NCBI GenBank assembly: GCA_016188065.1
Contig: JACPIN010000005.1
Span: 13,646 to 77,645, forward strand
DNA: 64,000 bases
DNA from: Candidatus Woesearchaeota archaeon
Lineage (GTDB): Archaea; Nanobdellota; Nanobdellia; SCGC-AAA011-G17; ARS1403
Reading direction: 5' to 3'
Made by a program: the position numbers and the translations under genes. The notes under the pieces were generated by a model that saw only the letters and a program-made list of their open reading frames with translations, searched no databases and was not told the DNA's origin. Positions 2,621 through 51,161 of the stretch are shown here, piece after piece (within the stretch, counting starts at the first letter, position 1; every line of letters begins with the position of its first letter).

Positions 2621-2621
2621 T

Positions 2622-6712: not shown

Positions 6713-6813
6713 TAAATCACCTCTTTGTCACAAGCTTAAAGATAAGTATTGTTCTTTATATAACTTTTTATAATTTTTACTTTATAAACTAACAAATAAT
6801 TAATAAGATTCTC

Positions 6814-7332: not shown

Positions 7333-7333
7333 T

Positions 7334-8248
7334 TTACTTTGTTATTATTGTAGCTGAGCTTCCTTTTAAAGCCTTCTGTAAATTTTCCGGAGAACAGATT
7401 ATAACTTTTTTTCCTTTTTTTTCTAGGAAATTAATTGCTGCCTCTATTTTCGGTCCCATTGATCCTGGGGGGAAATGTTCTTGCATATAATAATCCCTAA
7501 GACTATCAAGATGAACCTTCTTTATTGGTTTTTGTTGCTTTGTTCCATAATTTAAATATGCATAAGGAACTGATGTGATCATTATTAACACCTCGGCTTT
7601 GATAGAATTAGCTAAACATGCTGAAGCCAGATCTTTATCTATTACTGCTTCCACACCTTTTAATTTTCCATTCTCTTCTATGACTGGAATCCCCCCTCCG
7701 CCTGCTGCAATTATTGTTGTAGATTTTAGCAATTTTTGAATCGTTTTTGCCTCTAAAACTTTTATAGGTTTTGGCGATGGAACAACTCTTCGATAACCCC
7801 TGTCTGCATCTTTCCTTAGCTTATATTTATTTTTTAACTTATCCGCACGGAGTTTTGTGTAAAAAGGTCCAATGAATTTTGTTGGATCTCTGAATGCGGG
7901 ATCATTTTTATCCACTAAGACCTGGGTTAATATTGTTGCAACGTCTCTTTTATGACTTCTTAATGAATTGATTAGTTGTGCTTCTAAAGGATAACCGATT
8001 AAACCTTGAGACTCAGCTCCGAGAATATCCAACGGCATTGGAGGAATTTTCTTTTTTGCTAATTCATTCTGAAGAGCAAGGTATCCGATCTCAGGACCAT
8101 TTCCAAAAGAAATTACTACTTTATGTTTTTTGATTATCGGAGCTAGAACTTTACAAGTTTTTTTAATATTATTAATTAAATTATAATAAGTCTGCTTTTC
8201 ACCTTTCTTGATTAATGCATTCCCACCAAGAGCGATAACTAGTTTCAT
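7334..8248 (-). CDS. arcC: Carbamate kinase
   Basis: 304 aa; N-terminal MKLVIALGGNAL hallmark; amino-acid kinase fold motifs (IAAGGGGIPV). Confidence 0.9.
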   Translation of the reverse strand: MKLVIALGGNALIKKGEKQTYYNLINNIKKTCKVLAPIIKKHKVVISFGNGPEIGYLALQNELAKKKIPPMPLDILGAESQGLIGYPLEAQLINSLRSHKRDVATILTQVLVDKNDPAFRDPTKFIGPFYTKLRADKLKNKYKLRKDADRGYRRVVPSPKPIKVLEAKTIQKLLKSTTIIAAGGGGIPVIEENGKLKGVEAVIDKDLASACLANSIKAEVLIMITSVPYAYLNYGTKQQKPIKKVHLDSLRDYYMQEHFPPGSMGPKIEAAINFLEKKGKKVIICSPENLQKALKGSSATIITK

Positions 8249-11379: not shown

Positions 11380-11519
11380 AGAAAAGAAAGTTTTTCCTGT
11401 TTGTGAAGAAGTCCATTTTCCATCAATGTAATTCTTATAAGTTTCTATCTTAACTACCTCTTTATTATATAGATATTAACTGGCAAAGATTTTTATATAC
11501 CTTTCGATTATATCTAATT

Positions 11520-12884
11520 ATGATTTATGACCTAGTTGTTATTGGCGGCGGAAGTGCCGGCTATAGTGCTGCTAAACTTGCTGCTTCTTATAAAAAAAAT
11601 GTCTGTATTATTGAGAAAGGGCCTTTTGGCGGATTGTGTATATTGAGGGGGTGCATGCCGAGCAAGACATTATTGTGGAGTGCGAGAATTGCTGAGCTAA
11701 TAAGGAATGCTAAAGAATTTGGGATTCATGTAGATCAAAACATTAAAATTGATGCCAAACATATTGTTGAAAGAAAAAATAAAATAATAAAAGGATTTGC
11801 AGATTATAGACTAGATAGTGTTAAGAAAAACAAACATATTGATTTGATTTATGGAAAAGCAAGCTTCATTTTTAAAAACAAAGTTCAAGCCGGAGGAAAA
11901 GTAATTGAAGGAGAGAATTTTTTGATTTCTACCGGGAGCAAAATATCTATTCCAAATATTCCTGGATTGAAAGAAGCGGGTTATCTTACTAGCGACGAGG
12001 CATTGGAGCTTAAAAAGTTTCCAAAATCGTTGATAGTTTTAGGGGGAGGCCCTGTTACTTTAGAGTTAGCTTATTATTTTTTTAATCTTGGGGTTGAAGT
12101 CATAATAATTCAAAGAAGCGATCATGTTATGAGCGATAATGATGAAGATTTGGCTGAAGTCATTGAAGAGAGCTTTAGAAAAGAAGGAATTAAAGTTTAC
12201 ACTGGAACTTTCTTGAAAAAAGTTTCTAAAGTTGGAAACATAAAAGCAGTTGAGTTTGAGCATGGTAAGAAAAACGTTAATGTTAAAGCTGAAGAAATAT
12301 TAGTTGGATTAGGAAGAATACCTGATTTTGACGGATTAAATTTGCAAAGGACTGGAATGAAACTAGATGGTAAGGGAATTCCTATATTAAATGAATACCT
12401 TCAAACTTCTGTTAAAAATATTTATGTTGCTGGTGATGCTAGCAAAATTTTAGAGGTTGTTAACGTTGCTGTTGAGCAAGGGAGAGTTGCTGCTGAAAAT
12501 ATGTTTGGGAAAAAAGAGAAACTTGATTATCATAAATTCCCCGCTGCTGTTTTTACACATCCAGAAGTTGCTTGGATTGGAGTTACTGAAAAAGAAGTTA
12601 AAGAGAAAAATATGAACGCTGAAACTGCAAAATTGCCTTATGAAGACTTGGGAAAAGCTATGTGCCTTGGTGAAACTGAAGGTTTTATCAAAATGATTAT
12701 GGATAAGAAAAGCAAAAGAATCTTAGGTGTGGCTATTGTCGGGCATTTAGCAAGTGATATAATTCATGAAGCTGTTCCTTTGCTTTATAACAAAAATACT
12801 ATTTATGATTTAGCTAAAATGCAGCATATTCACCCTACCTTTGGAGAGATTTACAGTTACTTAGTTGAGGATTGTTGCGATTAA
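11520..12884 (+). CDS. Class I FAD-dependent pyridine nucleotide-disulfide oxidoreductase (Lpd/MerA-like) with a C-terminal Cys-Cys
   Basis: 454 aa; GGGSAGYSAA FAD site, redox-active GGLCILRGCMPSK, C-terminal HIHPTFGE dimer-interface His, and a terminal EDCCD. Confidence 0.8.
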   Translation: MIYDLVVIGGGSAGYSAAKLAASYKKNVCIIEKGPFGGLCILRGCMPSKTLLWSARIAELIRNAKEFGIHVDQNIKIDAKHIVERKNKIIKGFADYRLDSVKKNKHIDLIYGKASFIFKNKVQAGGKVIEGENFLISTGSKISIPNIPGLKEAGYLTSDEALELKKFPKSLIVLGGGPVTLELAYYFFNLGVEVIIIQRSDHVMSDNDEDLAEVIEESFRKEGIKVYTGTFLKKVSKVGNIKAVEFEHGKKNVNVKAEEILVGLGRIPDFDGLNLQRTGMKLDGKGIPILNEYLQTSVKNIYVAGDASKILEVVNVAVEQGRVAAENMFGKKEKLDYHKFPAAVFTHPEVAWIGVTEKEVKEKNMNAETAKLPYEDLGKAMCLGETEGFIKMIMDKKSKRILGVAIVGHLASDIIHEAVPLLYNKNTIYDLAKMQHIHPTFGEIYSYLVEDCCD

Positions 12885-24320: not shown

Positions 24321-24437
24321 TGCGGGAGTGCCGGAGTGGCCAAACGGGGTAGAAATTCCAAAATTGCCCGACCTCAAGAATTTGGCTAAGAAAGCTACTG
24401 GCTTAGTGCCTACGCAGGTTCGAATCCTGTCTCCCGC
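24321..24437 (+). tRNA. tRNA-Leu(CAA), class II, with two predicted introns (19 nt at 30/31 and 14 nt at 37/38)
   Basis: Acceptor GCGGGAG/CTCCCGC; 3-bp D stem with 11-nt loop; T arm GCAGG-TTCGAAT-CCTGT. Removing 24352-24370 and 24379-24392 gives anticodon arm GTAGC-CTCAAGA-GCTAC; variable arm GGC-TTAGT-GCC; mature length 85. Confidence 0.6.
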
Positions 24438-24478
24438 AGTTTGGATAAGCATATAAGCCTTAAGATATTTATTTTTAT

Positions 24479-26924: not shown

Positions 26925-27365
26925 TTAATGCATTTGCTTTAATTTAGAATAAATGCGTTTTGTAAAATATATTACTTTTTCTGCATATGACTTATCTAAA
27001 ATTGTACCGTAGTAGAGCATTCCATTTCTGAAAAACCTCATCTGATCAGCGAATTGCACATCCTTCTCATCAAATTCTAAAACCCTCATATAAGATACTT
27101 CAGCTTCATGCGCCCCAAACCCAGAAGCATTATATCCAGCTAAAAGCATCTTTGCTCTTATTAACTCCATTAATATATCATAACAAGATTTTACAAAATC
27201 ATTGGCATTAGCATCATTCAATTTTATCTTTTGTATTTTCTCCAATAGATTAGTATAACTGTTTTCAGATTCCTTAATCAAAAATTCTGCTCGAGATTTG
27301 TCTGCAGATTGCTTTTTAACAACATTATCTTTTATGAATTCATCAAATTTTCGTATTGCTCTCAT
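26925..27365 (-). CDS. HEPN-like partner protein of the upstream nucleotidyltransferase
   Basis: 146 aa all-alpha; overlaps the NTase gene stop by 4 nt (ATGA), the classical MNT-HEPN arrangement. Confidence 0.4.
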   Translation of the reverse strand: MRAIRKFDEFIKDNVVKKQSADKSRAEFLIKESENSYTNLLEKIQKIKLNDANANDFVKSCYDILMELIRAKMLLAGYNASGFGAHEAEVSYMRVLEFDEKDVQFADQMRFFRNGMLYYGTILDKSYAEKVIYFTKRIYSKLKQMH

Positions 27366-27910
27366 AGCTCAATTCCTCCTGCAAGGACAATTCCATTGTA
27401 CAAGTTTTCTTTCAAATTCTTATGGATATTTTTAAATGAAATGTAAAAATTTATATTTATTTTTCTCTCTAACAATTTTTCATAATTTGTTGTATCAATT
27501 ATTTTATCTTTCCTGCCGATTACTGCAAAATCTATGTCTGAATTTATTGTATCTTCGCCTCTTGAATAGCTTCCGAATAAAATTATTGCAGCTCCTGCAA
27601 ATTCTTTTTCAAGAAAATCTGCAAGCCCGGTTTCATATATCTGTTTTAAGTTGTCTACCATTTTTAGCTGCATTACTTTGTGATTATCCCTGTTCAATTC
27701 TATTGACCACCTTTTTGTTTCTTTGTCCTGATGTATTTTGATTAACTTTTCTTTTTCCAACGCTGGAAGCGCTTTCATTACTGCTGGCTGTGTAACCCAC
27801 AAAAAATTTGATATCTGTCTTTGATTTAGCAGAATTCCTACCTTTACAAATAGGAGCCTTAAAATCTCCTGCTGTAGACTTGTTAACTTTAGTTTATAGA
27901 TATTTACCAT
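27362..27910 (-). CDS. HTH plus minimal nucleotidyltransferase (MNT) fusion
   Basis: 182 aa; N-terminal wHTH; ILFGSYSRGEDTINSDIDFAV (GSxxxGxxxxxSDxD NTase motif). Confidence 0.7.
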   Translation of the reverse strand: MVNIYKLKLTSLQQEILRLLFVKVGILLNQRQISNFLWVTQPAVMKALPALEKEKLIKIHQDKETKRWSIELNRDNHKVMQLKMVDNLKQIYETGLADFLEKEFAGAAIILFGSYSRGEDTINSDIDFAVIGRKDKIIDTTNYEKLLERKININFYISFKNIHKNLKENLYNGIVLAGGIEL

Positions 27911-28015
27911 AGTTAATATATATTAACTTTAGTTTATATATCTTTTGGTTTTGTTTCTAAAATCGAAAATTTTAGCAATATTTAAAAGAAGCTTTTTCTT
28001 TAAAGTTTTCATAAT

Positions 28016-28176
28016 GCCCGGGTAGCTCAGCCTGGAAGAACCCTTTTGGAAAAAGCGTTCACGGAAAATTAAGCTTCACCAAAGAAAGCGGTTCTGGGTA
28101 AATAGAGCACAGATCTTAGCAAAAGAGTGCGACACTCCTAATGCTGGGGCCGGGGGTTCGAATCCCCTCTCGGGCG
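28016..28176 (+). tRNA. tRNA-Arg(CCU) with two predicted introns (67 nt in the D loop at 20/21 and 20 nt at 29/30)
   Basis: Acceptor GCCCGGG/CTCGGGC. Removing 28036-28102 restores the canonical D arm GCTC-AGCCTGGTA-GAGC. Removing 28113-28132 gives anticodon arm CAGCA-CTCCTAA-TGCTG. T arm GGGGG-TTCGAAT-CCCCT. Mature length 74. Confidence 0.55.
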
Positions 28177-28177
28177 A

Positions 28178-40128: not shown

Positions 40129-40248
40129 GCCGAGATCGCATAATCTGGTATTGCGCAGGTCTTGAATGAAACTTTTAGAAAAAGCTTCACCAAAAATAAG
40201 ATAACCTGTTCCCGAGAGGGTATCTGGGTTCAAATCCCAGTCTCGGCG
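40129..40248 (+). tRNA. tRNA-Ser(UGA), class II, with a 36-nt canonical (37/38) intron
   Basis: Acceptor GCCGAGA/TCTCGGC; 3-bp D stem with 11-nt loop; anticodon arm CAGGT-CTTGAA[intron 40167-40202]A-ACCTG; variable arm TCCCGAGAGGGTA; T arm TCTGG-GTTCAAAT-CCCAG. Confidence 0.75.
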
Positions 40249-40290
40249 CGCCATCAAAAAGATTTATATAGAGGTGGATAATAATTATAT

Positions 40291-40731
40291 TTGATGAAAA
40301 AGAGTGTGGCAAGAGCTGAAAGGAAAGACAAAGGGGTAATTTTCGTGTTTTCTATCATTGCATTATTCATTGTAGCTTTGGTTGGATTTAATCTTGAAAA
40401 CGTTACTGCCGGAGCAATAAGGAGTACCAAGACAACTGTAGATGTATCTCCAAAGTTTTTAAATGCGGGAGAGTATGTTACTGTAACTGTAAATCCTGGA
40501 AAGTATTGCGTTAACAGCGTAGTCGGATTCTATGATGATTCTGGATTGAGAAGGGCAACTGCAAGGACTGAAATTGGGAGCCCTAAAAAAGTCTGCCAAC
40601 AGTTCAGCGTCAAATATAAAACAAGCTCTGACTGGAAACCTGATGAAGAAGAGTCTGGAGTGTTTTTAGTAAAAGTATTTGATTACGGAAAGGAAGATTA
40701 TATTACAACTGCTTTCACAATAAATGAGTGA
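40291..40731 (+). CDS. Small secreted/anchored Cys-containing protein, paralog 1 of 3
   Basis: 146 aa; N-terminal TM/signal; conserved block VGFNLENVTAG...VDVSPKFLNAGEYVTVTVNPGKYCVNSVVGFYDD shared with the next two ORFs; stop overlaps the next start. Confidence 0.5.
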   Translation: MMKKSVARAERKDKGVIFVFSIIALFIVALVGFNLENVTAGAIRSTKTTVDVSPKFLNAGEYVTVTVNPGKYCVNSVVGFYDDSGLRRATARTEIGSPKKVCQQFSVKYKTSSDWKPDEEESGVFLVKVFDYGKEDYITTAFTINE

Positions 40732-41191
40732 GGAAATGGAAAAAAATAAATTAATCATCGGTGTTATTGCAGTTATATTGATTGCAGTGATAGGGTTTAA
40801 TTTCGGTAATTTAACTGGGAAGGTTACTAAGAATCTATCTCCGGATGCAACCGTATACCCAAATGTTGTTAAGGCTGGCGAAAAGATAAATGTAAAAGTG
40901 AAGCCAAATAATGGGTGTGTTGATCCTGAAATAGGATTTTATTTTTCTGGAAAATTGAGTGACGGCAGCATTACAAGCAGCGGCGGAAGGAAAGGTGTTG
41001 TGTCGCATAAAGGCGGATATAAGGTATGCAAAAATGATGGATTAATATTAGACAGGGATGGAACATTTACTGTGAGCTATAAGACCGAGCCTGGCTGGGA
41101 TGGAGAGCATTTTGCCAAGGTTTATTATTGGAAGAATAGAAATACAAAAGATTCTGTAAATGCATACTTCAATGTTTTGCCGAAAGAATGA
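40724..41191 (+). CDS. Small secreted/anchored Cys-containing protein, paralog 2 of 3
   Basis: 155 aa; IGFNFGNLTGKVTKNLSPDATVYPNVVKAGEKINVKVKPNNGCVDPEIGFYF; overlaps both neighbours (translational coupling). Confidence 0.5.
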   Translation: MSEEMEKNKLIIGVIAVILIAVIGFNFGNLTGKVTKNLSPDATVYPNVVKAGEKINVKVKPNNGCVDPEIGFYFSGKLSDGSITSSGGRKGVVSHKGGYKVCKNDGLILDRDGTFTVSYKTEPGWDGEHFAKVYYWKNRNTKDSVNAYFNVLPKE

Positions 41192-41649
41192 TGAAAATAA
41201 GCAATATTTTAATAGCTGCAGTTTTTTTAGTATTGATATCTTTATTTTCTTTAAATTTTGAAGAGCTAACCGGATATGTCCCTAAGCAAAGAATTCCTGA
41301 TGTCAGTGTAATTCAGCAGGTTGTTGATGCTGGCGAATACATTGATATTAGAGTTAAAATAAACGGATTCTGCATCGACCCTAAATTTGAAATTTTAACT
41401 AATGTAGATCTGCATAAAGACTATAAGACATATTTACCGACGGAAGATGATTGCGCCAAGCAGAATTTTAGGACGTGCAAGAGCCATAAGTACTGCCCTG
41501 GAGATATTAAAGACGATATCTTGGAATTGAGCTATAAAACACAGCCTGACTTTTATGGAGACTATAAAGTTAGAGTGAAATACATAGAGAAACCTGGACA
41601 GGATGAGTTCTACATGCCTTATATTGAAGCTGGATTCAAAGTTGTGTGA
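41188..41649 (+). CDS. Small secreted/anchored Cys-containing protein, paralog 3 of 3
   Basis: 153 aa; LFSLNFEELTGYVPKQRIPDVSVIQQVVDAGEYIDIRVKINGFCIDP; extra Cys cluster CAKQNFRTCKSHKYC. Confidence 0.5.
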   Translation: MMKISNILIAAVFLVLISLFSLNFEELTGYVPKQRIPDVSVIQQVVDAGEYIDIRVKINGFCIDPKFEILTNVDLHKDYKTYLPTEDDCAKQNFRTCKSHKYCPGDIKDDILELSYKTQPDFYGDYKVRVKYIEKPGQDEFYMPYIEAGFKVV

Positions 41650-41723
41650 AAAGATTTATTAATCCCCTATGAAATCCTTTTTCCTTTAGTTCTTTTTCAG
41701 CTTTATTCAAACACCATTTAACT

Positions 41724-42320
41724 TTATTGGAGGCTTGTGACATTTTCGATTATTTTTACTAATTTTTCATATCCTTGTAAAACATAACAATTTTTAATAA
41801 TATTCAGAACAACCTCATCTTTTTTCTTTAAGTTTTTAATTAAATCGTCTGGAGTCTGCTTCACTATATGCATGATTTTAGCAGATATTCCTCTTCTTTG
41901 GTTAATCTCTTTTTCTATCATACTATATCTCTCCTTTTTAAAAACAATTAATAAATCAATGTCGTTAGCGGTTTTAGGATTTCTTATAATAGATCCAAAT
42001 ATTATTGCAATCTCAATACATTCAAGCAATTCTTTGAATTCTGACAACCATCTTGATGCCTTCTCTCTTGCCTCTTCCATGAGAAGTATAGACATTAACT
42101 TGATTGTATATTCATCACTAAAATTTATTTTATAAAAAACAGCTTTCCCAAACTCTCTGCTGGTAAGGATATTCTGCGATTTAAGATTCTTGAGCATCTT
42201 TAAAGCCCCCCTCGGAGTTATCCCTATTTTTTTTGAAAGAGAATTGGCGTTATAATTATTAGTAAAATCTTTAAACAAAGTTAATAGTATTTCACTTTCC
42301 TTCTTTGTTAACCTTTTCAT
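41724..42320 (-). CDS. HTH plus minimal nucleotidyltransferase fusion (paralog of 27362..27910 and 46226..46744)
   Basis: 198 aa; N-terminal wHTH (GALKMLKNLKSQNIL); AIIFGSIIRNPKTANDIDLLIVF NTase motif. Confidence 0.65.
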   Translation of the reverse strand: MKRLTKKESEILLTLFKDFTNNYNANSLSKKIGITPRGALKMLKNLKSQNILTSREFGKAVFYKINFSDEYTIKLMSILLMEEAREKASRWLSEFKELLECIEIAIIFGSIIRNPKTANDIDLLIVFKKERYSMIEKEINQRRGISAKIMHIVKQTPDDLIKNLKKKDEVVLNIIKNCYVLQGYEKLVKIIENVTSLQ

Positions 42321-42362
42321 ATATCGGAACTATTTGTTCATATATCGGAACTATTTGTTCAT
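42321..42362. repeat. Perfect tandem duplication of a 21-bp unit (ATATCGGAACTATTTGTTCAT x2) between a TATA-like element and the start codon of the HTH-NTase gene
   Basis: Copies at 42321-42341 and 42342-42362; a TATA-like ATATATAAA follows at 42361-42369; the gene start codon is at 42318-42320 on the minus strand. Confidence 0.8.
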
Positions 42363-42431
42363 ATATAAATCTTTGCATAATTTTTGAATCTAAGTACTTG
42401 AATTTAGTATTGTTTATTTGATGAGACTTAA

Positions 42432-42653
42432 GATACTGCAAAAGAAAAAATAAGTAGAGAATTTATTGTTAAAGAAACTAAATACTATGTCCATGTTTCG
42501 GCATTAGTTAATAGAAAATTAGGCGTGTTAGAATCAGTTATAGAATACCTGAAAGAAAATTATGACTTGAATTATTCTGAGATTGGAAGACTGCTGGGAA
42601 GAGACCCGAGGACGATTTTGACTGCTTATAATCGAACTAGAAAAAAAGAATAA
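42432..42653 (+). pseudogene. ATG-less (5'-truncated) paralog of the small HTH protein encoded at 44005..44235
   Basis: Open frame from the stop at 42429 to the TAA at 42651-42653 encodes ...YYVHVSALVNRKLGVLESVIEYLKENYDLNYSEIGRLLGRDPRTILTAYNRTRKKE, about 80% identical to the 44005 protein but with no in-frame ATG/GTG start. Confidence 0.45.
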
Positions 42654-42665
42654 TTTTCTTTGATT

Positions 42666-43931
42666 TTATTTTAGTAACCATTTCCATAAGGGAATATATT
42701 TTATTTTTTTATTTTTGATTTTTTCTTCTCCTTCTTTGTCTTCTGTTATAACAAGAAGATTAGAGCATTTTAATTCTTTTGAGGCTTTTAGCAATGCTCT
42801 TAATTCTCTTTTTTTTGTATCGATATCAGAGATATCATAACATACCTGAATTAATTGTCCGACTTTTAGTTTTTCTTTTACGACAAAGTCCACTTCTTCA
42901 TGTTGGATATTTTTCCAGTAATAAAACTCAAGATTTGGATTGAAAGATTTTTTCCTTAGAAATTCTAAAGCAACTAAATTTTCATAGAGTCTTCCATAAT
43001 CCTGCGAATGCTTTATCGATACATTATTTATAATTCCAGTGTCTATAGCATAGATTTTTTTCTCGCTTTTTTCAATTTCTACTGGTTTAAAGGAAAACCT
43101 GTTTAGTAAAAAAATCATATAAGCTTCTTCTAGATAAGAAATATAATTTTTTATAGTATGTTCACTTTTAATATTGAATTGCTTCTTTATTTTGTTATAA
43201 CTAATCTTTCTTCCCGGGTTGCTTAGTAAAACTATAGCAATTTCTCTAAATGTTTTCTTATATGCTATGTCATATCTACTAATTATATCTCTCTCCACTA
43301 TCCTTCCGTATAGTTCTCTTAAATATCTCTTTGGATCTTCTTTTTCTACAACAACTTCAGGAAAGCCCCCGTTATTAAGATAGTTTTCAAGTTCCCTCTT
43401 TATAGCACCTTTGCCAATCGTGGTTTCGGTATCTTCTTTGAAATCCATCGCTTTTAAATATTCTTTAAAACTAAACGGAAATAATTCTATTGTTATGTGC
43501 CTGCCTGTTAAATGTGTAGCTAATTCTTTACTTAGTAACCTTGAATTACTACCAGTGATATAAATATTAAATCCTTGCCTTTTTAGCCTGTTGGAGAAGA
43601 GCTCCCACTTATCCAAATTTTGAATTTCATCAAAGAGAATATTTTTGACATTTTTCCCGTAAATTTCCTGGAAGGAGGATAATATCTCATCAGTATCAAA
43701 TTTGGTTAGCCTTTCATCATCAAAGTTCATATAAGCAAATTTTTCATTTTGTAGAAAGGCGTAAGATAATACTGATTTCCCACATCTTCTTGCTCCGATG
43801 ATTACTTTTATTAATTTAGAGGCTACTACATCTTTAAATGATTCATGAGCTTCCCTTTCAACAATCTTCTTTTTTTTTAACCAATCATCTAATTCTCTTT
43901 TCTGATCTCTTAATAAAAGCGTTAATTCCAT
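42666..43931 (-). CDS. AAA+ ATPase of the AAA_14 + DUF4143 family (COG1373-like), copy 1
   Basis: 421 aa; Walker A GARRCGKS, Walker B ILFDEIQ, DUF4143-like C-terminal half; the last ~40 aa are near-identical to copy 2. Confidence 0.75.
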   Translation of the reverse strand: MELTLLLRDQKRELDDWLKKKKIVEREAHESFKDVVASKLIKVIIGARRCGKSVLSYAFLQNEKFAYMNFDDERLTKFDTDEILSSFQEIYGKNVKNILFDEIQNLDKWELFSNRLKRQGFNIYITGSNSRLLSKELATHLTGRHITIELFPFSFKEYLKAMDFKEDTETTIGKGAIKRELENYLNNGGFPEVVVEKEDPKRYLRELYGRIVERDIISRYDIAYKKTFREIAIVLLSNPGRKISYNKIKKQFNIKSEHTIKNYISYLEEAYMIFLLNRFSFKPVEIEKSEKKIYAIDTGIINNVSIKHSQDYGRLYENLVALEFLRKKSFNPNLEFYYWKNIQHEEVDFVVKEKLKVGQLIQVCYDISDIDTKKRELRALLKASKELKCSNLLVITEDKEGEEKIKNKKIKYIPLWKWLLK

Positions 43932-44004
43932 AGATTTATGGCGTATTTTAACTATATAAATCTTTGTTTTTATAATACGTAAAAATTATAAATTTTACGC
44001 ATTT

Positions 44005-44235
44005 ATGGTTTTTATGATAATTAACTGTAATGGGTTAATTTTAGACGACTACAAAAACCTCCCAACCTTTTCTGTTCCTGTTTCTGCATTGACCGATAGA
44101 AAACTTGGTGTTCTTGAGAGTGTTGTGAAATTCTTGAAGGAAAATTACGAGCTGAATTATTCTGAGATTGGAAGATTATTGGGAAGAGATCCAAGAACTG
44201 TTTGGACTGCTTATTCGAGAGGGAAGAAGAATTAG
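44005..44235 (+). CDS. Small HTH protein with a DnaA-domain-IV-like motif
   Basis: 76 aa; LNYSEIGRLLGRDPRTVWTAYSRG resembles the DnaA C-terminal (F)GGRDHTTV(IHA) DNA-binding signature. Confidence 0.5.
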   Translation: MVFMIINCNGLILDDYKNLPTFSVPVSALTDRKLGVLESVVKFLKENYELNYSEIGRLLGRDPRTVWTAYSRGKKN

Positions 44236-44254
44236 ATATTATAGTAGAATAGAT

Positions 44255-45550
44255 TCATACTTGTAATAGCCACTTCCATAAGGGAATAAATTTTATCTTT
44301 TTATTTTTGATTTTTTCTTCCCCTTCTTTGTCTTCGGTTATAACTAAAAGATTATTACATTTTAGTTCCTTTGAAGCTTTTAATAGGGATTTCAATTCCC
44401 GTTCTTTTGTGCTAAGCTCTTCCAAGGAACAGCATACCTGAATTAGTTCCTTTACCTTTTTATTTTCAATAACAACGAAATCAGTTTCTTTTGCATTAGA
44501 GGATTTGTGATAGTAAACCTCTTTATTCTTTCTCAACAATTCAATAAAAACCAGATTTTCCATAAGTTTGTCCATGTCTTTGATCCCATTAATTGTCAAT
44601 AAACCATTATCTATAATATACATCTTTGGCAGAGATTGCTCTTTTTCCCTGTAAGAATATGAGAATTTCCTTAATGGGAAAGCGAAGAAAACATCATTTA
44701 AAGCATCAACATAATTATAAAGGGCATCTTTACTTGCTTTAATTCCTTGAGACTTTACAAAATTGTAAAATTTATGGACAGAAAATTCTCTTGCAATGGA
44801 ATTTATTAAAGTATTTATGAGTATCCTCAAAAGCTTTATATTTCGAATCTTATATCTTTCAATTACATCTCTAACAATTGTTGTTTCAACTATATCACGA
44901 TGAATTTTTTCTCTCTCTTTTTCATATAAAGCCACTTCAGGATATCCCCCTTTTTCAAGATAGTTTCTGAAATGGCTAAGAAGATTCCTCTTCCCTGATT
45001 TGGAAAGATATTTTTCGATTTTGAAACTCTTAAAGTGCAGATACTCTAAGAAAGAAAGGGGAAAAATTGTATAGGTTAGAGTTCTTCCTCTCATAGAGGT
45101 GGCAATTTCTCGGCTTAGGAGTTTTGAGGAAGAGCCTGAAAGAAATAGCTGTAATCTTTCATTGTCAATCAGGGTTCTTACTGAATTTTCCCATCCATCA
45201 ACCACTTGTATTTCATCAAAAAAAACCCAGCATTTCTTTTTTTCATTGTCAGGATATATCTCGAAAAAGGTATCAATTAAAACCAAGATGTCCTTCCCAG
45301 TGATCCCTTCAAGCTCTGCTCTTTCGAAGTTAATATACAATAATCTCGTTTTTTCAATTCCGTTGTTAATAAGTTCTGTTATGACTTGGAATAACCTAAA
45401 AGTTTTCCCGGACCTTCTAGGGCCAATGAGAGATATTGACCTCCTTAAGGGGATATAATCGGGGATATTTAAACTTCTTTTAATTAGATGGGGCAAATCC
45501 TTTTCATGAAAATCCTTTATAATTTCTCCGAGATTGGATTTAGTTATCAT
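44255..45550 (-). CDS. AAA+ ATPase of the AAA_14 + DUF4143 family, copy 2
   Basis: 431 aa; Walker A GPRRSGKT, Walker B VFFDEIQ; C-terminus LKASKELKCNNLLVITEDKEGEEKIKNKKIKFIPLWKWLL nearly identical to copy 1. Confidence 0.75.
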   Translation of the reverse strand: MITKSNLGEIIKDFHEKDLPHLIKRSLNIPDYIPLRRSISLIGPRRSGKTFRLFQVITELINNGIEKTRLLYINFERAELEGITGKDILVLIDTFFEIYPDNEKKKCWVFFDEIQVVDGWENSVRTLIDNERLQLFLSGSSSKLLSREIATSMRGRTLTYTIFPLSFLEYLHFKSFKIEKYLSKSGKRNLLSHFRNYLEKGGYPEVALYEKEREKIHRDIVETTIVRDVIERYKIRNIKLLRILINTLINSIAREFSVHKFYNFVKSQGIKASKDALYNYVDALNDVFFAFPLRKFSYSYREKEQSLPKMYIIDNGLLTINGIKDMDKLMENLVFIELLRKNKEVYYHKSSNAKETDFVVIENKKVKELIQVCCSLEELSTKERELKSLLKASKELKCNNLLVITEDKEGEEKIKNKKIKFIPLWKWLLQV

Positions 45551-45670
45551 GGTATTTCATAGAAGGAAATTATTTATAAATGTTTCCTTTTATAAAATCT
45601 GTAATTTATTGTAATGTCTTCCTTAATTTTTAAGTGGATTAATTCCTTCTTCAGAATCATTTCAACAACT

Positions 45671-45688
45671 ATTTCCATAGGGAATATA
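45671..45688. repeat. Decayed third copy of the 3' end of the AAA_14/DUF4143 ATPase gene
   Basis: ATTTCCATAGGGAATATA matches CATTTCCATAAGGGAATA(T/A)A at the stops of both ATPase genes (42669-42690 and 44268-44290), but no ORF follows. Confidence 0.4.
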
Positions 45689-45714
45689 GATTATCAAGGT
45701 TTTAAAAAGACGAA

Positions 45715-46131
45715 GTGTTGACCGTAAGCGTTGATTTATTAATTGGTGGAATGGGACTAAGGCAGACAGATTCATCTTTAAGTTTTGATATTATGAATAA
45801 GAATTCCACCCAGAAAGTTATAAATGGTCTGGAGAAAGAAATTAAAATTAAGATTCCTTCAAAAGAATTGTTAATTGCCATGAAATTTCATTCTGGAAGA
45901 TGATCCGATATTAGAGATATTATAGCCTTGATGCCATGCAATGAGGAAAAACTAAAAGTGCACATAGCAAAAGGAAATATAAAATTGCTAAAAGAAAATG
46001 TAGACAGGCAGAAAAAGTTCTTGGAAAAACCACAATTTGATGACAGCTTTAAGGTAATTTTTGGAATCAAAAGTTATAATGAGAAGAAGGTAAAGGAGGC
46101 AAAAAAAATTAATAAATACAGAGTATATTAA
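45715..46131 (+). pseudogene. Single reading frame interrupted by an in-frame TGA (45901-45903); unknown small protein, possibly a decayed partner of the adjacent NTase
   Basis: ORFs 45715..45903 and 45928..46131 are in the same frame (offset 213 nt) with an open frame between them except for one TGA. Confidence 0.3.
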
Positions 46132-46225
46132 AGTTATAAATATGCAGCAGAAGACTAAATCCTCAAATTTTTATCAGGATTCTGTTTTTTAACATCGCCC
46201 TTTTTTAAAAAAATTTCAAAATCTT

Positions 46226-46744
46226 TTACCATGATCCTTCCAGCACAATTCCATTAGTAAGACTTGCTTTAAATTCATTACTTATTTTATTTAAATCGAA
46301 TTCATGCAGATTTATGTGTTTTCTTAAAATCTTTTCATATTTTCCCATATTTAAGTCAATTTTTTTCTTTGTAAATACTGCTATATCTATATCAGACTTT
46401 TCTATATCATCCCCCCTGGAGAAACTTCCAAATAATATTATATTTTTTGGATGGTTGTATAAATTTGAGATATAATCTATAACACCTGATTTATAAATAT
46501 TTTCAAGATTGTGTAGACGCTTGAACCTTATAAAATTCATATTTTCCCTATCTGCCTGCACTTTAGTTATTACCTTTCCCTTAGTTTTTATAATCAATTT
46601 TTCTCTCGATAAAATATCTGTAGAAGCAACTATTGTAGGCATAGAAAACTTCAACAACCTAGAAAGTTCCCTAAGATGAAATTCTTTAGCGGGATTATCA
46701 AAAAATATATCTAATACCTTCTGAATGGTAGATTTTTCTATCAT
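46226..46744 (-). CDS. HTH plus minimal nucleotidyltransferase fusion (third paralog)
   Basis: 172 aa; wHTH N-terminus (FHLRELSRLLKFSMPTI); IILFGSFSRGDDIEKSDIDIAVF. Confidence 0.65.
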   Translation of the reverse strand: MIEKSTIQKVLDIFFDNPAKEFHLRELSRLLKFSMPTIVASTDILSREKLIIKTKGKVITKVQADRENMNFIRFKRLHNLENIYKSGVIDYISNLYNHPKNIILFGSFSRGDDIEKSDIDIAVFTKKKIDLNMGKYEKILRKHINLHEFDLNKISNEFKASLTNGIVLEGSW

Positions 46745-46916
46745 ATGATATATAAAACTGACAGATGGTATATAAATCTATCTATTTGTGTGTAATGTGT
46801 GTTTGTGCTATCCCGAAGCTATGTTGTGTAATCCTGAAATTATCCCCATCGATAGATGTTTTGAGCTCTCTTAATGTGAGGAAAAGTATTTAAATTTCAA
46901 AGAAAAACTAAAAGCA

Positions 46917-47765
46917 ATGGTTATTGAAAATCTTGTAAACCCTGCCAAGGCTGAAGGCCGGCCGTGGGAGATGTTCTTCCTTGGGTTTTTATATTCTTCA
47001 GTTGCTGTTTTCCTGAGCTTGTGGATATTTCAGGATTATTCTAGTTTAGTAATGGTGTTCCTGACTGTTTTTGCAAGTGTTCCGGTTGTATATACCTTAA
47101 TTGCTATTGAAGAAAAAAAAGATACTAGTAATAAGAGTGAAAGATTTTTGCTGAAGGAGCATAGCAAAGCGCTTGCTGTCCTAATCTTTCTTTTTTTGGG
47201 ATACACCGTCGCTTTTTCTCTATGGTTTGTTGTCCTTCCTGAAAACACTGTGCAAAACATGTTCAATGTCCAGCTTGAAACAATTAGAAGCATAAATGCG
47301 GGAGTTACAAGCTTTAGCACTGGAACTGGCTTTGTGATGCAGATTTTTAGCAATAACATTAAAGTTATGATCTTCTGCATAATGTTTGCCTTCTTATTTG
47401 GTGCCGGAGCGATCTTTATCCTGACCTGGAATGCTTCTGTTATTGCTGCTGCCATTGGAACTTTTATCAGGAGCAATGTTGCCAGCTATGCCGAAGCTGC
47501 CGGGCTTGGAAAATTAACCGGATACTTTCATATTGGAAGCATTGGACTGATGAGATATATGATTCACGGGATTCCGGAAATACTTGCTTACTTCGCTGCT
47601 GGCCTTGCAGGGGGAATAATTTCTGTTGCTGTAATAAGGCATGATTTTGGAAGCAAGAATTTTAACAAGATTTTGTACGACTCAATGGATTTAATTGTCA
47701 TAGCGATATTAGTTTTGTTTATCGCTGCCCTGATTGAAGTGTTTATCACTCCTGTTTTATTTTAG
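46917..47765 (+). CDS. SpoIIM/DUF95-like polytopic membrane protein
   Basis: 282 aa, 6-7 TM, topology and length typical of the DUF95 family; weak assignment. Confidence 0.35.
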   Translation: MVIENLVNPAKAEGRPWEMFFLGFLYSSVAVFLSLWIFQDYSSLVMVFLTVFASVPVVYTLIAIEEKKDTSNKSERFLLKEHSKALAVLIFLFLGYTVAFSLWFVVLPENTVQNMFNVQLETIRSINAGVTSFSTGTGFVMQIFSNNIKVMIFCIMFAFLFGAGAIFILTWNASVIAAAIGTFIRSNVASYAEAAGLGKLTGYFHIGSIGLMRYMIHGIPEILAYFAAGLAGGIISVAVIRHDFGSKNFNKILYDSMDLIVIAILVLFIAALIEVFITPVLF

Positions 47766-48730
47766 TCGTAATCATTTTTTAACTTTAATAATTCAAGAGA
47801 GATTGCCAGAATTAAAGGGCCTATTATTAATCCTATAAATCCCAGAAGATTTAAGCCGCCCAGAATTCCAAGAAGGATTATTGTTGGATGGATGTTTGCT
47901 TTTCTTCCAATTAACTTCGGCTTGATTAAATTATCTACGGTTCCTACTACTAAAGCCCCGAAGATAATAATCCCTACTCCGGAAAAATAATCCTGCTGGA
48001 TAATTTGAATAATTCCCGCTGGAAGCCAGATAAGTGCAGTGCCTGCAAAGGGGATTAAAGAAGCGAATGCCATGACAAAGCCCCATAATATTGGAGAAGG
48101 AATGTTGAAGATAGCAAAGCCTATTCCGCCTAAAACCCCCTGTATTATTGCTGTGAGGATTATGCCGTAGATTAGTGCGCCAGTTATTGACTTGAATTTT
48201 TCCAGGATCAATGTTTTTTTTCTCTCGTCTAGAGGGAGGTGTTTTTTTACAAAACTAACTAATGAAGAAGATTCTTTTAACAGATAATAAGTCAGGAAGA
48301 CAATTATGAATAAATTCAATGCCCTTTGCGGGATTGAAAGAATAAAATTTGAAGCGGACTTTGCTATGAATAATAATGTATTATTAGCTATGCCTGAAAT
48401 GTATTTCTGGAAATCGGATTCTAGATACTTTGTTGCTATCTGCAGCAGATTCTTTTCCTTCACTTTTTGGTAGACTGCGACTGACTCGTGCGCCAGCGAA
48501 TTTGCTATTATTAAAGAGGGGATTATTGCTAAAAACAAGATGATTAGGAGTGTGAATGCTGAGCTGATGCTTTTACTGTTAATCTTGCTGTTTAATTTTG
48601 CATATAATGGGGAGAAAACAAATGCCAGGACGAAACTGAATAATATTGCTGATATAAACGGCTTGACTGTTAAGAAGATTAAATAAGCTAACAGCAGAGA
48701 GATTAAGATTGAGAAAGATTGCCTTTTCAT
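47762..48730 (-). CDS. AI-2E (PerM/UPF0118) family transporter
   Basis: 322 aa, 8 TM; conserved C-terminal block DNLIKPKLIGRKANIHPTIILLGILGGLNLLGFIGLIIGP typical of UPF0118. Confidence 0.7.
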   Translation of the reverse strand: MKRQSFSILISLLLAYLIFLTVKPFISAILFSFVLAFVFSPLYAKLNSKINSKSISSAFTLLIILFLAIIPSLIIANSLAHESVAVYQKVKEKNLLQIATKYLESDFQKYISGIANNTLLFIAKSASNFILSIPQRALNLFIIVFLTYYLLKESSSLVSFVKKHLPLDERKKTLILEKFKSITGALIYGIILTAIIQGVLGGIGFAIFNIPSPILWGFVMAFASLIPFAGTALIWLPAGIIQIIQQDYFSGVGIIIFGALVVGTVDNLIKPKLIGRKANIHPTIILLGILGGLNLLGFIGLIIGPLILAISLELLKLKNDYD

Positions 48731-48750
48731 GCTATTATGATTGATTACTT

Positions 48751-48785
48751 TTTTATAAACATTGCTTTTTTAATCGCTTTGCTCT
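48751..48785. repeat. Left copy of an about 35-42 bp imperfect direct repeat flanking the DUF433/DUF5615 pair
   Basis: TTTTATAAACATTGCTTTTTTAATCGCTTTGCTCT; the partner at 49439-49480 differs by a 7-nt insertion and one substitution. Confidence 0.7.
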
Positions 48786-48816
48786 CATGGACAACTACGT
48801 TTTCCATTGCCTTTCC

Positions 48817-49173
48817 TTAATCGATTTTTCTCATCCTAATTCCTGCTTCTGAGATAACTAAAAATTTACCACTTAATTCAACCCCCAGTTTTTCTATGAC
48901 ATATAATAAAAGCTTTAGCCTGTTTTCTGGATTGTCTATGTTTAACCTTAAAAGAATGACTCCTTTTGAATGCTTTTTTCTTCTGAAAACTATCTCTCCG
49001 AAGTCTTTATCATTTGTTATCAAAATCCTGTCATCTTTTAATGCCTCCTCTAGAACAATCTCATCATCTGCACCAAGCAAATCTTCACTAATGTATTCCG
49101 TGTCATATCCTTTTTCCCTGAGCGATGAAACTAATTTTCTACCAGTACTTTCATCAACTAGAAACTTTAGCAT
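48817..49173 (-). CDS. DUF5615-like PIN-related putative nuclease (toxin-like partner of DUF433)
   Basis: 118 aa; LKFLVDESTG...ILITNDKDFGEIVF pattern of DUF5615/Mut7-C-like proteins; overlaps the DUF433 gene by 20 nt. Confidence 0.6.
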   Translation of the reverse strand: MLKFLVDESTGRKLVSSLREKGYDTEYISEDLLGADDEIVLEEALKDDRILITNDKDFGEIVFRRKKHSKGVILLRLNIDNPENRLKLLLYVIEKLGVELSGKFLVISEAGIRMRKID

Positions 49174-49417
49174 ATCTCTTTTTTTCTAAGAAGGGCAATA
49201 CTGTTTCTGAACCGACAATTTCAGCACCATACATTAATGCTGCCTTAATGTCCTTCTTATTTATATGAGGATAATCTTCCAATATTTCTCTTTCAGTCAT
49301 TCCTTGTGCAACTAACTTAATAAGTAGGTCCACCGGAATCCTTGTGCCTTTTATTACCGGTTTTCCTACCATAATCTTTGGATTGACAACGATCCTATTT
49401 AATAAGCCTTGATCCAT
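49154..49417 (-). CDS. DUF433-family small protein (antitoxin-like partner)
   Basis: 87 aa; PVIKGTRIPVDLLIKLVAQGMTEREILEDYPHINKKDIKAAL matches the DUF433 signature. Confidence 0.65.
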   Translation of the reverse strand: MDQGLLNRIVVNPKIMVGKPVIKGTRIPVDLLIKLVAQGMTEREILEDYPHINKKDIKAALMYGAEIVGSETVLPFLEKKRYAKVSS

Positions 49418-49438
49418 ATTATTTTATGAAACCTTTAA

Positions 49439-49480
49439 TTTTATAAACATTGCTTTTTACTTTTTTAATCGCTTCGCTCT
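49439..49480. repeat. Right copy of the direct repeat flanking the DUF433/DUF5615 pair
   Basis: TTTTATAAACATTGCTTTTTACTTTTTTAATCGCTTCGCTCT. Confidence 0.7.
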
Positions 49481-49524
49481 AATAAGACACCTGCGGTTTC
49501 TTATGAAAACTTCCCATCTTCCTT

Positions 49525-49700
49525 TTTCTTTCAGAAAGAAACACTAATTGAACAAAGTTCAATTGTGCGCCATTGAGTTTCACTCAATTAGCGAATCAAG
49601 CCCGAAAAGAAACATTTTAGCTTCCAATTTTTCTTTGGACACGATTTCTTTTTCCTAAAAAGAAAGTGTGATGGAAGGCAGATGGAAACCTTGGTGTCCA
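49525..49700. promoter_or_regulatory. Cluster of AT-rich palindromes in the divergent intergenic region between the TA-like pair and the retropepsin/RimK operon
   Basis: P1 TTTCTTTC-A-GAAAGAAA (49525-49541); P2 AATTGAAC-AAA-GTTCAATT (49546-49564); P3 ATTGAGT-TTC-ACTCAAT (49572-49588); P4 TTTCTTTTT-CCT-AAAAAGAAA (49645-49665); outer inverted repeat TGGACAC/GTGTCCA (49636-49642 and 49694-49700). Confidence 0.6.
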
Positions 49701-49755
49701 TGTTTTCCTAAACTTTTGTGGAAAAATTTAAATAAGATTTTATCAATCAAAAGTT

Positions 49756-50085
49756 ATGTTAAAAGACAATGAAATTCTTGGATTGGTTGAAAAAGTGAAA
49801 ATAAAAGGCAGGGAGATTTTAGCAAGAGTGGATACTGGGGCCAGAAGATGCAGCATTGACAAGAAGCTTGCAAATGAGTTGAAGCTAGGCCCTGTCATTG
49901 GGAATCGGAAATATAGAAGCGCCCATGGGAAAAGTATTAGGCCTGTTGTTATCGAGGAGATTGAGCTGAAAGGAAAGAAATTAATTGTAAAGATAAACTT
50001 AAGCGATAGGAGAGAGATGAAATACAACTTTTTAGTGGGAAGGGAAGCTTTAAAAAAAGGTTTTCTGATTGACCCTAGCAGATGA
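49756..50085 (+). CDS. Retropepsin-like aspartic protease (the so-called ATP-dependent zinc protease family commonly paired with RimK)
   Basis: 109 aa; ARVDTGARRCSI with a DTGA catalytic motif; immediately upstream of, and overlapping, the RimK-like gene. Confidence 0.55.
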   Translation: MLKDNEILGLVEKVKIKGREILARVDTGARRCSIDKKLANELKLGPVIGNRKYRSAHGKSIRPVVIEEIELKGKKLIVKINLSDRREMKYNFLVGREALKKGFLIDPSR

Positions 50086-51161
50086 GATTGGCTATAATAA
50101 GCTTGGGGGGGACAAGCAGCGAGCTCATTGGGAAAGAGGCTGGAAATTTTTTCAAAAGCGTTGACTTGCTTGACATCAGGAAGATTGAGATTGCTGCCGG
50201 CTCTAAGGAATCAGAGATTTTATATGAAAAAAATCCCTTGAAGGAGTATGACTGCGTTTATATCAGAGGGAGCTTTAATTATGCACTGCTGCAGAGGAGC
50301 CTGACTTTTATTCTTCAAAGCAAGAATGTTTACATGCCATTTAACCCGGATACGTTTACAATTGCGCATGATAAATTCTTAACAACTTTATCTCTGCAGA
50401 AAGCGGGAATTAAAATTCCAAAGACTTATCTTGCTGCGACTATGAAGGATGCTAAGAAGCTGCTTGAAGAGGTGAATTTCCCAATCATAATGAAAGTGCC
50501 TACAGGGACTCAGGGAAAGGGGGTGATGAGCGCTGATTCGCTTGCAAGCGCAAGATCAATGCTTGATACCTTAGAGAGCTTGAGGCAGCCAGTTATTCTG
50601 CAGGAGTATATAGAAACTGATGCTACTGATATAAGAGCAATAGTTGCTGGAAAAAAAGTAATTGCGAGCATGAAGAGAAAGGGAATGAGCGGAGAGATAA
50701 GGAGCAACATACATCAAGGAGGGATTGGAGTTGAATATGAATTAGACTATGACACTGAGAATATTGCAGTTAAAGCTGCTAAATCTGTGAATGCGGAGAT
50801 ATGCGGGGTTGACATCCTTGAAAGCGTTAGAGGTAATGTTGTTATAGAGGTTAACTTAAGCCCGGGGTTGAGAGGGATAATGAATGCTACTAAAAAGAAT
50901 GTTGCCAAATCCATTGCTGAATATTTATTTAAAAAAACTGCTGAATTTAAAAAAACCGAGAAGGATAATGGATATAATGAGATTATGAAGGGGATAAAAG
51001 CTAAAAGCGACAAAGAAGTGCTCACTAACTTAGAGATTAAAGCTGGGAAGATAAGGCTGCCTGAATTGATGACTAAGATGAGCGGGTTTGAAAATGAAGA
51101 GGAGGTTGTTCTAGTTGCTGAGAACGGGAAGATAGAGATAAAGAAGCAGGACATTAAATAA
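50082..51161 (+). CDS. RimK-like ATP-grasp ligase (alpha-L-glutamate ligase family) with C-terminal extension
   Basis: 359 aa; ATP-grasp motifs FPIIMKVPTGTQGKGV and EICGVDILES; about 70-aa extra acidic C-terminal tail. Confidence 0.7.
   Translation: MRLAIISLGGTSSELIGKEAGNFFKSVDLLDIRKIEIAAGSKESEILYEKNPLKEYDCVYIRGSFNYALLQRSLTFILQSKNVYMPFNPDTFTIAHDKFLTTLSLQKAGIKIPKTYLAATMKDAKKLLEEVNFPIIMKVPTGTQGKGVMSADSLASARSMLDTLESLRQPVILQEYIETDATDIRAIVAGKKVIASMKRKGMSGEIRSNIHQGGIGVEYELDYDTENIAVKAAKSVNAEICGVDILESVRGNVVIEVNLSPGLRGIMNATKKNVAKSIAEYLFKKTAEFKKTEKDNGYNEIMKGIKAKSDKEVLTNLEIKAGKIRLPELMTKMSGFENEEEVVLVAENGKIEIKKQDIK

Follow-up and report, generated by a model that had tools for sequence, protein, structure and literature searches.

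The 64,000-nucleotide window analysed here (contig JACPIN010000005.1 of assembly GCA_016188065.1, positions 13,646 to 77,645) belongs to a metagenome-assembled genome (MAG) of Candidatus Woesearchaeota, a small groundwater archaeon with a reduced DPANN genome, whose protein locus tags at NCBI begin with HYV89_. We concentrate on the genes downstream of its tRNA-Ser(UGA), where a preliminary description, made from the letters alone, had placed an accessory island running from position 40249 to 49755 and had proposed that synteny, base composition and defence-family matches be compared. Relatives of the locus, numbered with an L below, were fetched from NCBI, ENA, JGI and Logan assemblies with the flanking proteins as anchors; domains were called with Pfam and defence families with PADLOC. 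The landmarks of the locus are these:

40129-40249, plus strand: tRNA-Ser(UGA) with a 36-nt archaeal intron (40167-40202) after the anticodon loop, called by ARAGORN in intron mode (-i)
40291-40731, 40724-41191 and 41188-41649, plus strand: sp1, sp2 and sp3, overlapping paralogous genes for membrane-anchored Ig-like (MG/CARDB-like) surface proteins
about 41667-46878, no strand: variable (accessory) segment of 5.2 kb between sp3 and the SpoIIM promoter
46917-48730: SpoIIM-like gene (plus) and AI-2E transporter gene (minus), called by Pfam, conserved core within the island of the preliminary description
48751-49522, minus strand: inserted pair of the DUF433/DUF5615 PIN-like toxin–antitoxin (TA) type, DUF433 at 49154-49417 and DUF5615 at 48817-49173
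49484-49710, no strand: hairpin-rich non-coding stretch with long-range pairing
49756-51161, plus strand: Asp-protease (RimB-like) and RimK, the conserved right flank, by Pfam and synteny

The order tRNA-Ser, sp1-3, SpoIIM, AI-2E, Asp-protease, RimK, AglB forms a core block. The tRNA-Ser and sp1-3 are kept in every relative (all Ca. Woesearchaeota) that covers them, the sp genes being 73-86% identical, and the order from SpoIIM through AI-2E, Asp-protease and RimK to AglB is retained as well. The tRNA-Ser(UGA) that had been placed at 40129-40248 is present, although it is recovered only in the intron mode of ARAGORN; the default mode and Rfam at its gathering thresholds return zero tRNAs in the whole window. 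The three small genes beside it are, as had been proposed, true paralogues (mutual BLASTP identity 29-31%, E=4e-15 and 1e-18; sp1-sp3 E=1e-5). SpoIIM is 79-96% identical across the relatives and belongs to a widespread core family with 3984 homologues at E<=1e-60, while AI-2E is 51-64% identical; the GC content of sp1-3, SpoIIM and AI-2E is normal or high. We also observed that neighbouring genes have diverged unevenly from those of L012 (904-2722), with SpoIIM at 96%, AI-2E at 59% and the sp genes at the 73-86% given above; this unevenness could be due to strong constraint or mark a recombination boundary.

Between these conserved genes lies DNA that is not conserved. In L059, L114 and L121, sp3 directly abuts SpoIIM, with 46-56 nt from one gene to the other, and therefore the variable segment of the window extends from about 41667 to 46878. 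Its left edge falls some 17 nt past the sp3 stop codon, a stretch common to the window and L012; at its right edge, conservation with L052 and L053 is 100% over the 38 nt that precede SpoIIM. Among the relatives, at least six different cargo sets occupy this sp3-SpoIIM junction:

L012: two DUF6036-type pairs, a 141-aa gene with a nucleotidyltransferase (NTase), and an hth gene
L052: a winged helix-turn-helix (wHTH) NTase with a 131-aa partner, a PDC-S01 ATPase with a 78-aa gene, and an MNT gene
L057: a 75-aa gene, an ATPase 3' remnant, a 139-aa partner with the orthologue of the window's NTase gene HTHNT2, and an MNT-remnant::HepT gene
L115: AbiEi/AbiEii and a PDC-M05A-like protein
L119: HerA-like, PIN_2/RHH_12, ParA and a large surface protein
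L122: yet other genes

The composition of the segment sets it apart. Its GC content of 0.298 is below that of all 242 other 5.2-kb windows with which we compared it (mean 0.343, minimum 0.310), and because of this low GC we suggest that the cassettes arrive by horizontal transfer.

A second site of insertion is the bidirectional promoter between AI-2E and the Asp-protease gene. This junction is empty in L015, L058, L059, L062, L114 and L121, with 64-160 nt separating the two genes in L059, L114 and L121; it is occupied by a small transmembrane-protein gene in L012, L016 and L017, and by PIN_2/RHH_12 in L122-124 and probably L060. Among the relatives examined, the DUF433/DUF5615 pair stands there in the window only. 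Both genes are small and co-oriented, with the antitoxin first and a 20-nt overlap, and both matches exceed the Pfam cutoffs (DUF433 2.3e-24, 85.4 bits against 23.6; DUF5615 5.3e-21, 75 bits against 23.8). Copies of the AI-2E promoter box flank the pair at 48751-48804 and 49439-49500, and the direct repeat by which the pair had been said to be bracketed is real, about 62 nt long and 77% identical with a perfect 20-nt core. The box, TTTATAAAC(A/C)TT, occurs in two direct copies round each insert in five occupied states (window 48752/49440; L016 11830/12214; L119 13350/13735; L122 10333/11190; L012, in reverse complement, 16764/17168), and the box-bearing empty sites have one copy.

A pairing of DUF433 (COG2442) with a PIN-family toxin was predicted as a TA system by Makarova et al. 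in 2009 and is rare in archaea (PMC2701414). The window pair is like it in that DUF433 lies upstream of, and overlaps, a PIN-like DUF5615/Mut7-C gene and in its patchy, mobile presence; it differs in its toxin, which belongs to the PIN-like subtype DUF5615/Mut7-C, and in its insertion within a bidirectional promoter, the box of which has been duplicated. A PHROGs search with the pair gave matches of unknown function only. We predict a type II addiction or stress module, with DUF433 as the antitoxin and DUF5615 as a PIN-like RNase toxin.

The remaining junctions of the block vary too. Between SpoIIM and AI-2E, L119 has an AbiEii pair and L114 an AMP phosphorylase gene; an MNT gene stands between the tRNA and a 136-aa gene in L012-14; 7.4 kb separate the tRNA from sp1 in L125 (Ga0209541_10001687, 1703-9105); and the RimK-AglB junction also differs between relatives. 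From these observations, we hypothesize, with a probability of roughly 0.78, that the locus is a core block whose intergenic junctions accrete small selfish TA or candidate-defence cassettes, which turn over by recombination and not by tRNA-directed integration. The main accretion site would be sp3-SpoIIM, with its cargo of about 5.2 kb of low-GC DNA made up of ATPases, hth genes, orphan NTases and remnants; the AI-2E-Asp-protease promoter, with its DUF433/DUF5615 pair, would be the second. Turnover would proceed by homologous and illegitimate recombination among the paralogous cassettes and promoter boxes, yielding gene conversion, deletion and inversion.

The preliminary description favoured a different origin, a variable hot spot at the tRNA itself, and one may picture a genomic island that covers 40249-49755, entered tRNA-Ser by site-specific integration and later lost its integrase. 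Such an island would explain why a tRNA gene stands at the left edge and why the content is accessory-like, and would be in keeping with the L125 insert between tRNA-Ser and sp1, where an RHH gene is accompanied by a gene of 320 aa that matches rve_3 faintly, and with the extra MNT gene across the tRNA in L012-14. However, the genes that separate the tRNA from the variable DNA, sp1-3, occur in conserved form in every relative, and two more genes well inside the proposed extent, SpoIIM and AI-2E, belong to the core. The empty sites of L059, L114 and L121 map to sp3-SpoIIM and AI-2E-Asp-protease and not to the tRNA; no integrase domain is found by Pfam among the open reading frames (ORFs) of 38-54 kb, an absence already remarked upon; and searches for an attachment site in the window (pattern matching with up to 3 mismatches, blastn-short and a repeat search) yielded no second copy of the tRNA 3' end. 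Content and length do vary among the relatives, but the junctions at which they vary are sp3-SpoIIM and AI-2E-Asp-protease. The likeness to tRNA-linked integrative islands thus ends with a nearby tRNA and accessory cargo: the window has neither integrase nor att duplication, and conserved genes intervene between the tRNA and the variable DNA. We consider tRNA-targeted integration very improbable. The tRNA-Ser is a conserved landmark, not an island boundary, and we stress that a tRNA beside accessory genes is no evidence of tRNA-targeted integration.

An anomalous GC content could also betray a chimeric join in the contig, an artefact of assembly or binning, and Logan contigs from the same project do break at about 40154, 40237, 40610, 42345 and 50028. 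These breaks, however, fall at a tandem repeat or at the conserved tRNA and not at the island edges. An independent Logan assembly, L131, spans sp2, sp3 and the first NTase gene of the segment, HTHNT1, at 99.8% identity; L057 independently joins the HTHNT2 orthologue to SpoIIM; and a single L012 contig includes the tRNA, sp1-3, SpoIIM and AI-2E together with a variable region. A chimera is, in our view, the least credible account of the segment, and we return to accretion at core-block junctions as the basis on which to read its contents:

41724-42320, minus strand: HTHNT1, wHTH plus minimal nucleotidyltransferase, partnerless (Polbeta 3e-8; PDC-M05A 3.1e-13; MntA 20.3 bits, below cutoff)
42316-42357, no strand: perfect tandem duplication of 21 nt (two copies) that takes in the HTHNT1 start codon; the end of Logan contig L131 falls within it
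42432-42653, plus strand: hth0, a helix-turn-helix (HTH) paralogue whose open frame offers no ATG, GTG or TTG before the GTG at 42525; over 54 aa it shares 74% identity with hth1
42666-43931, minus strand: ATPase1, AAA_14 plus DUF4143 with intact catalytic motifs (Pfam 3.8e-34 and 1.4e-23; PADLOC PDC-S01 3.5e-110)
44005-44235, plus strand: hth1, a 76-aa sigma70-r4/HTH_23-like protein, convergent with ATPase2 (Sigma70_r4_2 5.9e-5, below the Pfam cutoff)
44255-45550, minus strand: ATPase2, AAA_14 plus DUF4143 (PADLOC PDC-S01 2e-106)
45660-45694, minus strand: remnant of a third ATPase 3' end, about 35 nt (..YSLWK*LLK, with a 1-nt deletion)
45715-46131, plus strand: pseudogene that retains the C-terminal two-thirds of a nucleotidyltransferase gene (DUF6036/AbiEii-like) and is interrupted by an in-frame TGA (45901-45903)
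46155-46232, minus strand: HEPN-like partner remnant of HTHNT2, 25 codons, MVKDFEIFLKKGDVKKQNPDKNLRI*
46226-46744, minus strand: HTHNT2, wHTH plus nucleotidyltransferase (Pfam 2.7e-10 and 1.1e-8; PDC-M05A 7.2e-13; MntA 36.3 bits, below cutoff)
46783-46878, no strand: GT-rich tract, where L057 has a 674-nt MNT-remnant::HepT gene
26925-27910, minus strand, outside the segment: intact pair of a 182-aa wHTH-nucleotidyltransferase and a 146-aa HEPN-fold partner (26925-27365) with a 4-nt overlap

Pfam and PADLOC recognise none of the following: the NTase partner, a 74-78-aa protein found in relatives (described below), hth0 and the pseudogene pieces.

Two tandem convergent modules, each a small HTH gene facing an AAA_14/DUF4143 ATPase, had been described in the segment; both are found, at a repeat spacing of about 1590 nt, together with the decayed third junction (45660-45694) and the ATG-less HTH paralogue, hth0, that had been reported with them. 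We regard hth0 as probably degenerate at its N-terminus; homologues of hth1 occur in L012 and L015/L120. Both ATPases are AAA+ P-loop NTPases with a C-terminal domain of the PD-(D/E)xK superfamily. They match the profile of PDC-S01, a single-gene candidate defence system of PADLOC with a COG1373-type ATPase, over their full length (in the 3.5e-110 match, residues 21-421 against positions 8-408 of 412), and in both the Walker A and B motifs (GxRRxGK[ST], DEIQ) are invariant with respect to bacterial plasmid homologues. In an alignment of six sequences of the C-terminal domain, E346, D348, E376 and a Q-V motif are invariant in the family, the E..D..E residues being kept by both window copies, and ExK occurs in none. 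Bacterial plasmids often carry homologues (344 records), whereas phage records rarely do (22); a sequence search of the PDB with the ATPase gave zero matches.

PDC-S01 has been described as an ATPase fused to a domain of the PD-(D/E)xK superfamily, the fourth most common prokaryotic candidate system and one enriched in Archaea; DPANN archaea are enriched in AbiE and PDCs (PMC12988326). The window ATPases share with it the AAA_14 and DUF4143 domains, the Walker motifs and C-terminal acidic residues, and the archaeal and DPANN enrichment fits (PMC12988326). They differ in that two divergent copies stand in tandem beside the remnant of a third, with a small HTH gene opposite each one and with homogenised 3' ends. 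They would be NTP-dependent, nucleic-acid-targeting effectors of defence or abortive infection.

The two ATPases are mosaic. They are 42% identical overall, yet 89% identical over the last 46 aa; at the DNA level, positions 42683-42782 reach 89% identity and the adjoining hth region 73%, as compared with about 50% elsewhere. On the strength of this alignment, the pattern indicates probable gene conversion or recombination at the convergent junction. In relatives, we observed a basic protein of 74-78 aa (M[RK][VLI]IDWLLKKS.HHKS..IDHKEHKKKTRDSF...) encoded directly 3' of the PDC-S01-type ATPase (L052 1332-1568, L055 7896-8120, L057 801-1028; truncated in L012 2819-2980); none is encoded in the window.

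The two HTH-nucleotidyltransferase fusions that had been claimed are confirmed by Pfam as HTHNT1 and HTHNT2, whose Polbeta and NTP_transf_2 matches exceed the cutoffs. They are distant paralogues only; a recent duplication was considered and rejected, as they have no direct BLASTP match to each other. An orthologue of HTHNT2 in L057 is 95% identical. Both match PDC-M05A, and both score below the 60-bit cutoff of the NCBIfam MntA equivalog NF047752. As regards the tandem duplication at the start of HTHNT1, we note that the ATG of the upstream copy meets a stop after 3 codons.

Elsewhere, NTases of this kind come with a partner. The NTase is translationally coupled to a partner of 131-146 aa in L052, in L057 and in the window itself at 26925-27910. 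The structures nearest to a model of the partner (pLDDT 81) are the HEPN protein 2hsb (TM-scores 0.62/0.70) and HEPN toxins of HEPN-MNT complexes; a PDB sequence search with the partner gave zero matches. The window pair, a complete counterpart of the island's orphan NTases, adjoins a tRNA call at 28015-28177, and its partner bears the motif RFFRNGMLYYG. HEPN proteins usually carry Rx4-6H. In the island, by contrast, no partner ORF adjoins HTHNT1, and beside HTHNT2 there is a 25-codon remnant only. The DNA of the window and L057 is 96.3% identical over 616 nt up to about position 46165, where the similarity stops, and L057 keeps the full 139-aa partner; HTHNT2 has thus lost its partner through a deletion after codon 24 of the partner gene.

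PDC-M05, which like PDC-S01 is a common candidate enriched in Archaea, consists of an NTase and a HEPN protein (PMC12988326). The island NTases resemble this arrangement, and with it the HEPN-MNT (type VII) TA systems, in that they match PDC-M05A over its full length and keep the GS..DxD catalytic motif, and in that the NTases of L052, L057 and window 26925-27910 are paired with a HEPN-fold partner. They differ in that both island NTases are partnerless and below the MntA cutoff, and in that the partner family is missed by the Pfam HEPN and PADLOC M05B profiles and has RNxxxY in place of Rx4-6H. We infer that the orphan NTases may be relic antitoxins, possibly still neutralising the HEPN-like protein encoded at 26925.

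Two further features of the segment point to decay. The ORF that had been reported as interrupted by a TGA has indeed one in-frame TGA; it corresponds, at 40-51% identity, to residues 92-222 of an intact 224-aa gene in L012 (DUF6036 3.5e-6). The GT-rich low-complexity tract that had been noticed at 46780-46830 is seen at 46783-46878 and, by comparison with L057, is a deletion or replacement scar. Across the segment, it is the toxin-type genes (HEPN-like, HepT, DUF6036/AbiEii-like) that decay first, whereas the antitoxin-type NTases persist and the ATPases are intact.

Do these genes cooperate? The preliminary description raised the possibility of an undescribed defence or competition system. 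In a system of this sort, the hth genes, the PDC-S01-like ATPases and the wHTH-NTases would act together, with the convergent hth and ATPase genes as the functional unit. Two to three tandem copies of that arrangement are present, and their junction is highly conserved; an AAA_14 ATPase followed by a double-hth gene lies downstream of RimK in L015/L120; and an hth homologue persists beside SpoIIM in L012. However, the orthologous ATPase type of L052, L055 and L057 has no hth gene and is followed instead by the 74-78-aa basic protein, the plasmid homologues of the ATPase share no common neighbour, hth0 is without a start codon, the NTases of relatives pair with a HEPN-like gene and not with ATPases, and several of the window components are pseudogenes. 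A cooperating multi-gene system is accordingly unlikely, and the individual families are already on record: the ATPases are PDC-S01 (3.5e-110 and 2e-106), the NTases are PDC-M05A-like (3.1e-13 and 7.2e-13), and the DUF433-PIN pair was predicted in 2009. The segment is an ordinary fast-turnover TA and defence patch of catalogued families, not a new system.

Clusters of this kind recall the defence-island concept, reportedly set out by Makarova et al. in 2011. Like defence islands and TA hot spots, the window shows clustering, rapid gain, loss and decay, a compositional anomaly and cargo that differs among relatives at the same locus. Unlike them, the patch is very small (5 kb), is without mobile-element hallmark genes and lies in a reduced DPANN genome, and several adjacent junctions act as mini hot spots.

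Some observations weigh against cassette accretion as we describe it, or limit how far it reaches. The relatives are MAG and metagenome contigs only, at 80-96% amino acid identity, so that the comparison is made above strain level. Many junctions in the neighbourhood vary, and sp3-SpoIIM may not be unusually hot when set against the genome-wide rate. Part of the high C-terminal identity between the ATPases reflects constraint and not conversion, the WKWLL C-terminus being family-wide. The C-terminal motif of the ATPases is ExDF..QV and not the canonical D..ExK, which leaves nuclease activity uncertain. Finally, an antiviral role of PDC-S01 and PDC-M05 is without experimental proof, and PDC-S01 awaits validation (PMC12988326). 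With these reservations, accretion at core-block junctions offers a comparative case of the turnover of TA and candidate-defence cassettes in DPANN archaea, complete with empty sites and decay intermediates.

What would promote such turnover is a more speculative matter. The boundary sequences might serve as integrase-independent recombination handles, and the hth protein might be a dedicated regulator or partner of the PDC-S01 ATPases in DPANN archaea, but we hold this to be doubtful. One candidate handle is the junction of about 330 nt formed by hth and the ATPase 3' end, whose three copies are 75-89% identical while the ATPase bodies are at about 50%; another is the duplicated TTTATAAACATTG promoter box, which flanks every insert at AI-2E-Asp-protease in the five occupied states. 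Against a partnership of hth with the ATPases stands its absence beside the orthologous ATPases of L052, L055 and L057.

The non-coding stretch at 49484-49710, to the right of the DUF433/DUF5615 pair, had been described as palindrome-rich, and on both strands it does fold more stably than shuffled sequence (z=-3.3 and -3.6). An Rfam covariance-model scan of the stretch gave best E-values of about 0.015-0.09, with scores far below the gathering thresholds. Fragments of it recur, rearranged, in L055 (6380-6880, with one piece inverted and at a non-homologous site) and in L016 (12252-12324). A 31-nt motif (GGAAGGCAGATGGAAACCTTGGTGTCCATG-like) is also found, in either orientation, beside inserts at AI-2E-Asp-protease in several relatives. 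A novel non-coding RNA was entertained as the principal reading of this stretch and dropped, as only rearranged fragments recur, and these at non-homologous sites.

Orthologues of the tRNA-Ser are present in L001, L003, L012-14, L114 and L125, and their intron states differ. That of L114 (5197-5280) has no intron, as compared with 36 nt in the window, and those of L012 (8967-9064) and L125 (1703-1801) have one of about 12 nt; in L009 (3070-3192) and L121 (about 8100-8260) there are apparently two introns, located in the 5' anticodon stem and at 37/38. Two further tRNAs of the window are called by ARAGORN -i only, a tRNA-Trp(CCA) at 24321-24439, whose intron is 20 nt long, and a doubtful tRNA-Ala(AGC) at 28015-28177, with an intron of 68 nt. 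Intron-containing archaeal tRNAs escape default tools, and caution is warranted accordingly. The motif AAGCTTCACCAAA lies inside the tRNA-Ser intron (40182-40194) and again inside the 68-nt 'intron' of the 28015-28177 call (28071-28083); these are its 2 exact matches in the window, with 0.32 expected. In L121 and L114, it is also found immediately 5' of the TATA box of tRNA-Ser. The insert of the 28015-28177 call and the first tRNA-Ser intron of L121 have another motif, GAAAAAGCGTTCACGGAAAA, in common. In the marine relative L114, a LAGLIDADG-like ORF adjoins the tRNA.

Inserts of other kinds were observed in the neighbourhood. Besides its RHH gene and the 320-aa gene with a faint rve_3 match, the insert between tRNA and sp1 in L125 holds genes for methyltransferases, a NUDIX protein and a flavoprotein; L125 and L055 share one 43-kb contig, on which the SpoIIM block is inverted with respect to the sp block. 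On the left flank there is a mini hot spot between a 50-aa gene and SecD, where a DUF5678 gene and a small ORF are inserted in L009 (5554-6000) and in L010 and L011 (2470-3069) and are absent in the window. In L114, genes for a RuBisCO large subunit, an IF-2B-family protein and a glycosyl-transferase-family-3 (AMP phosphorylase-like) protein are inserted in the core block (5452-8531 and 10836-12293); these are probably AMP-salvage genes.

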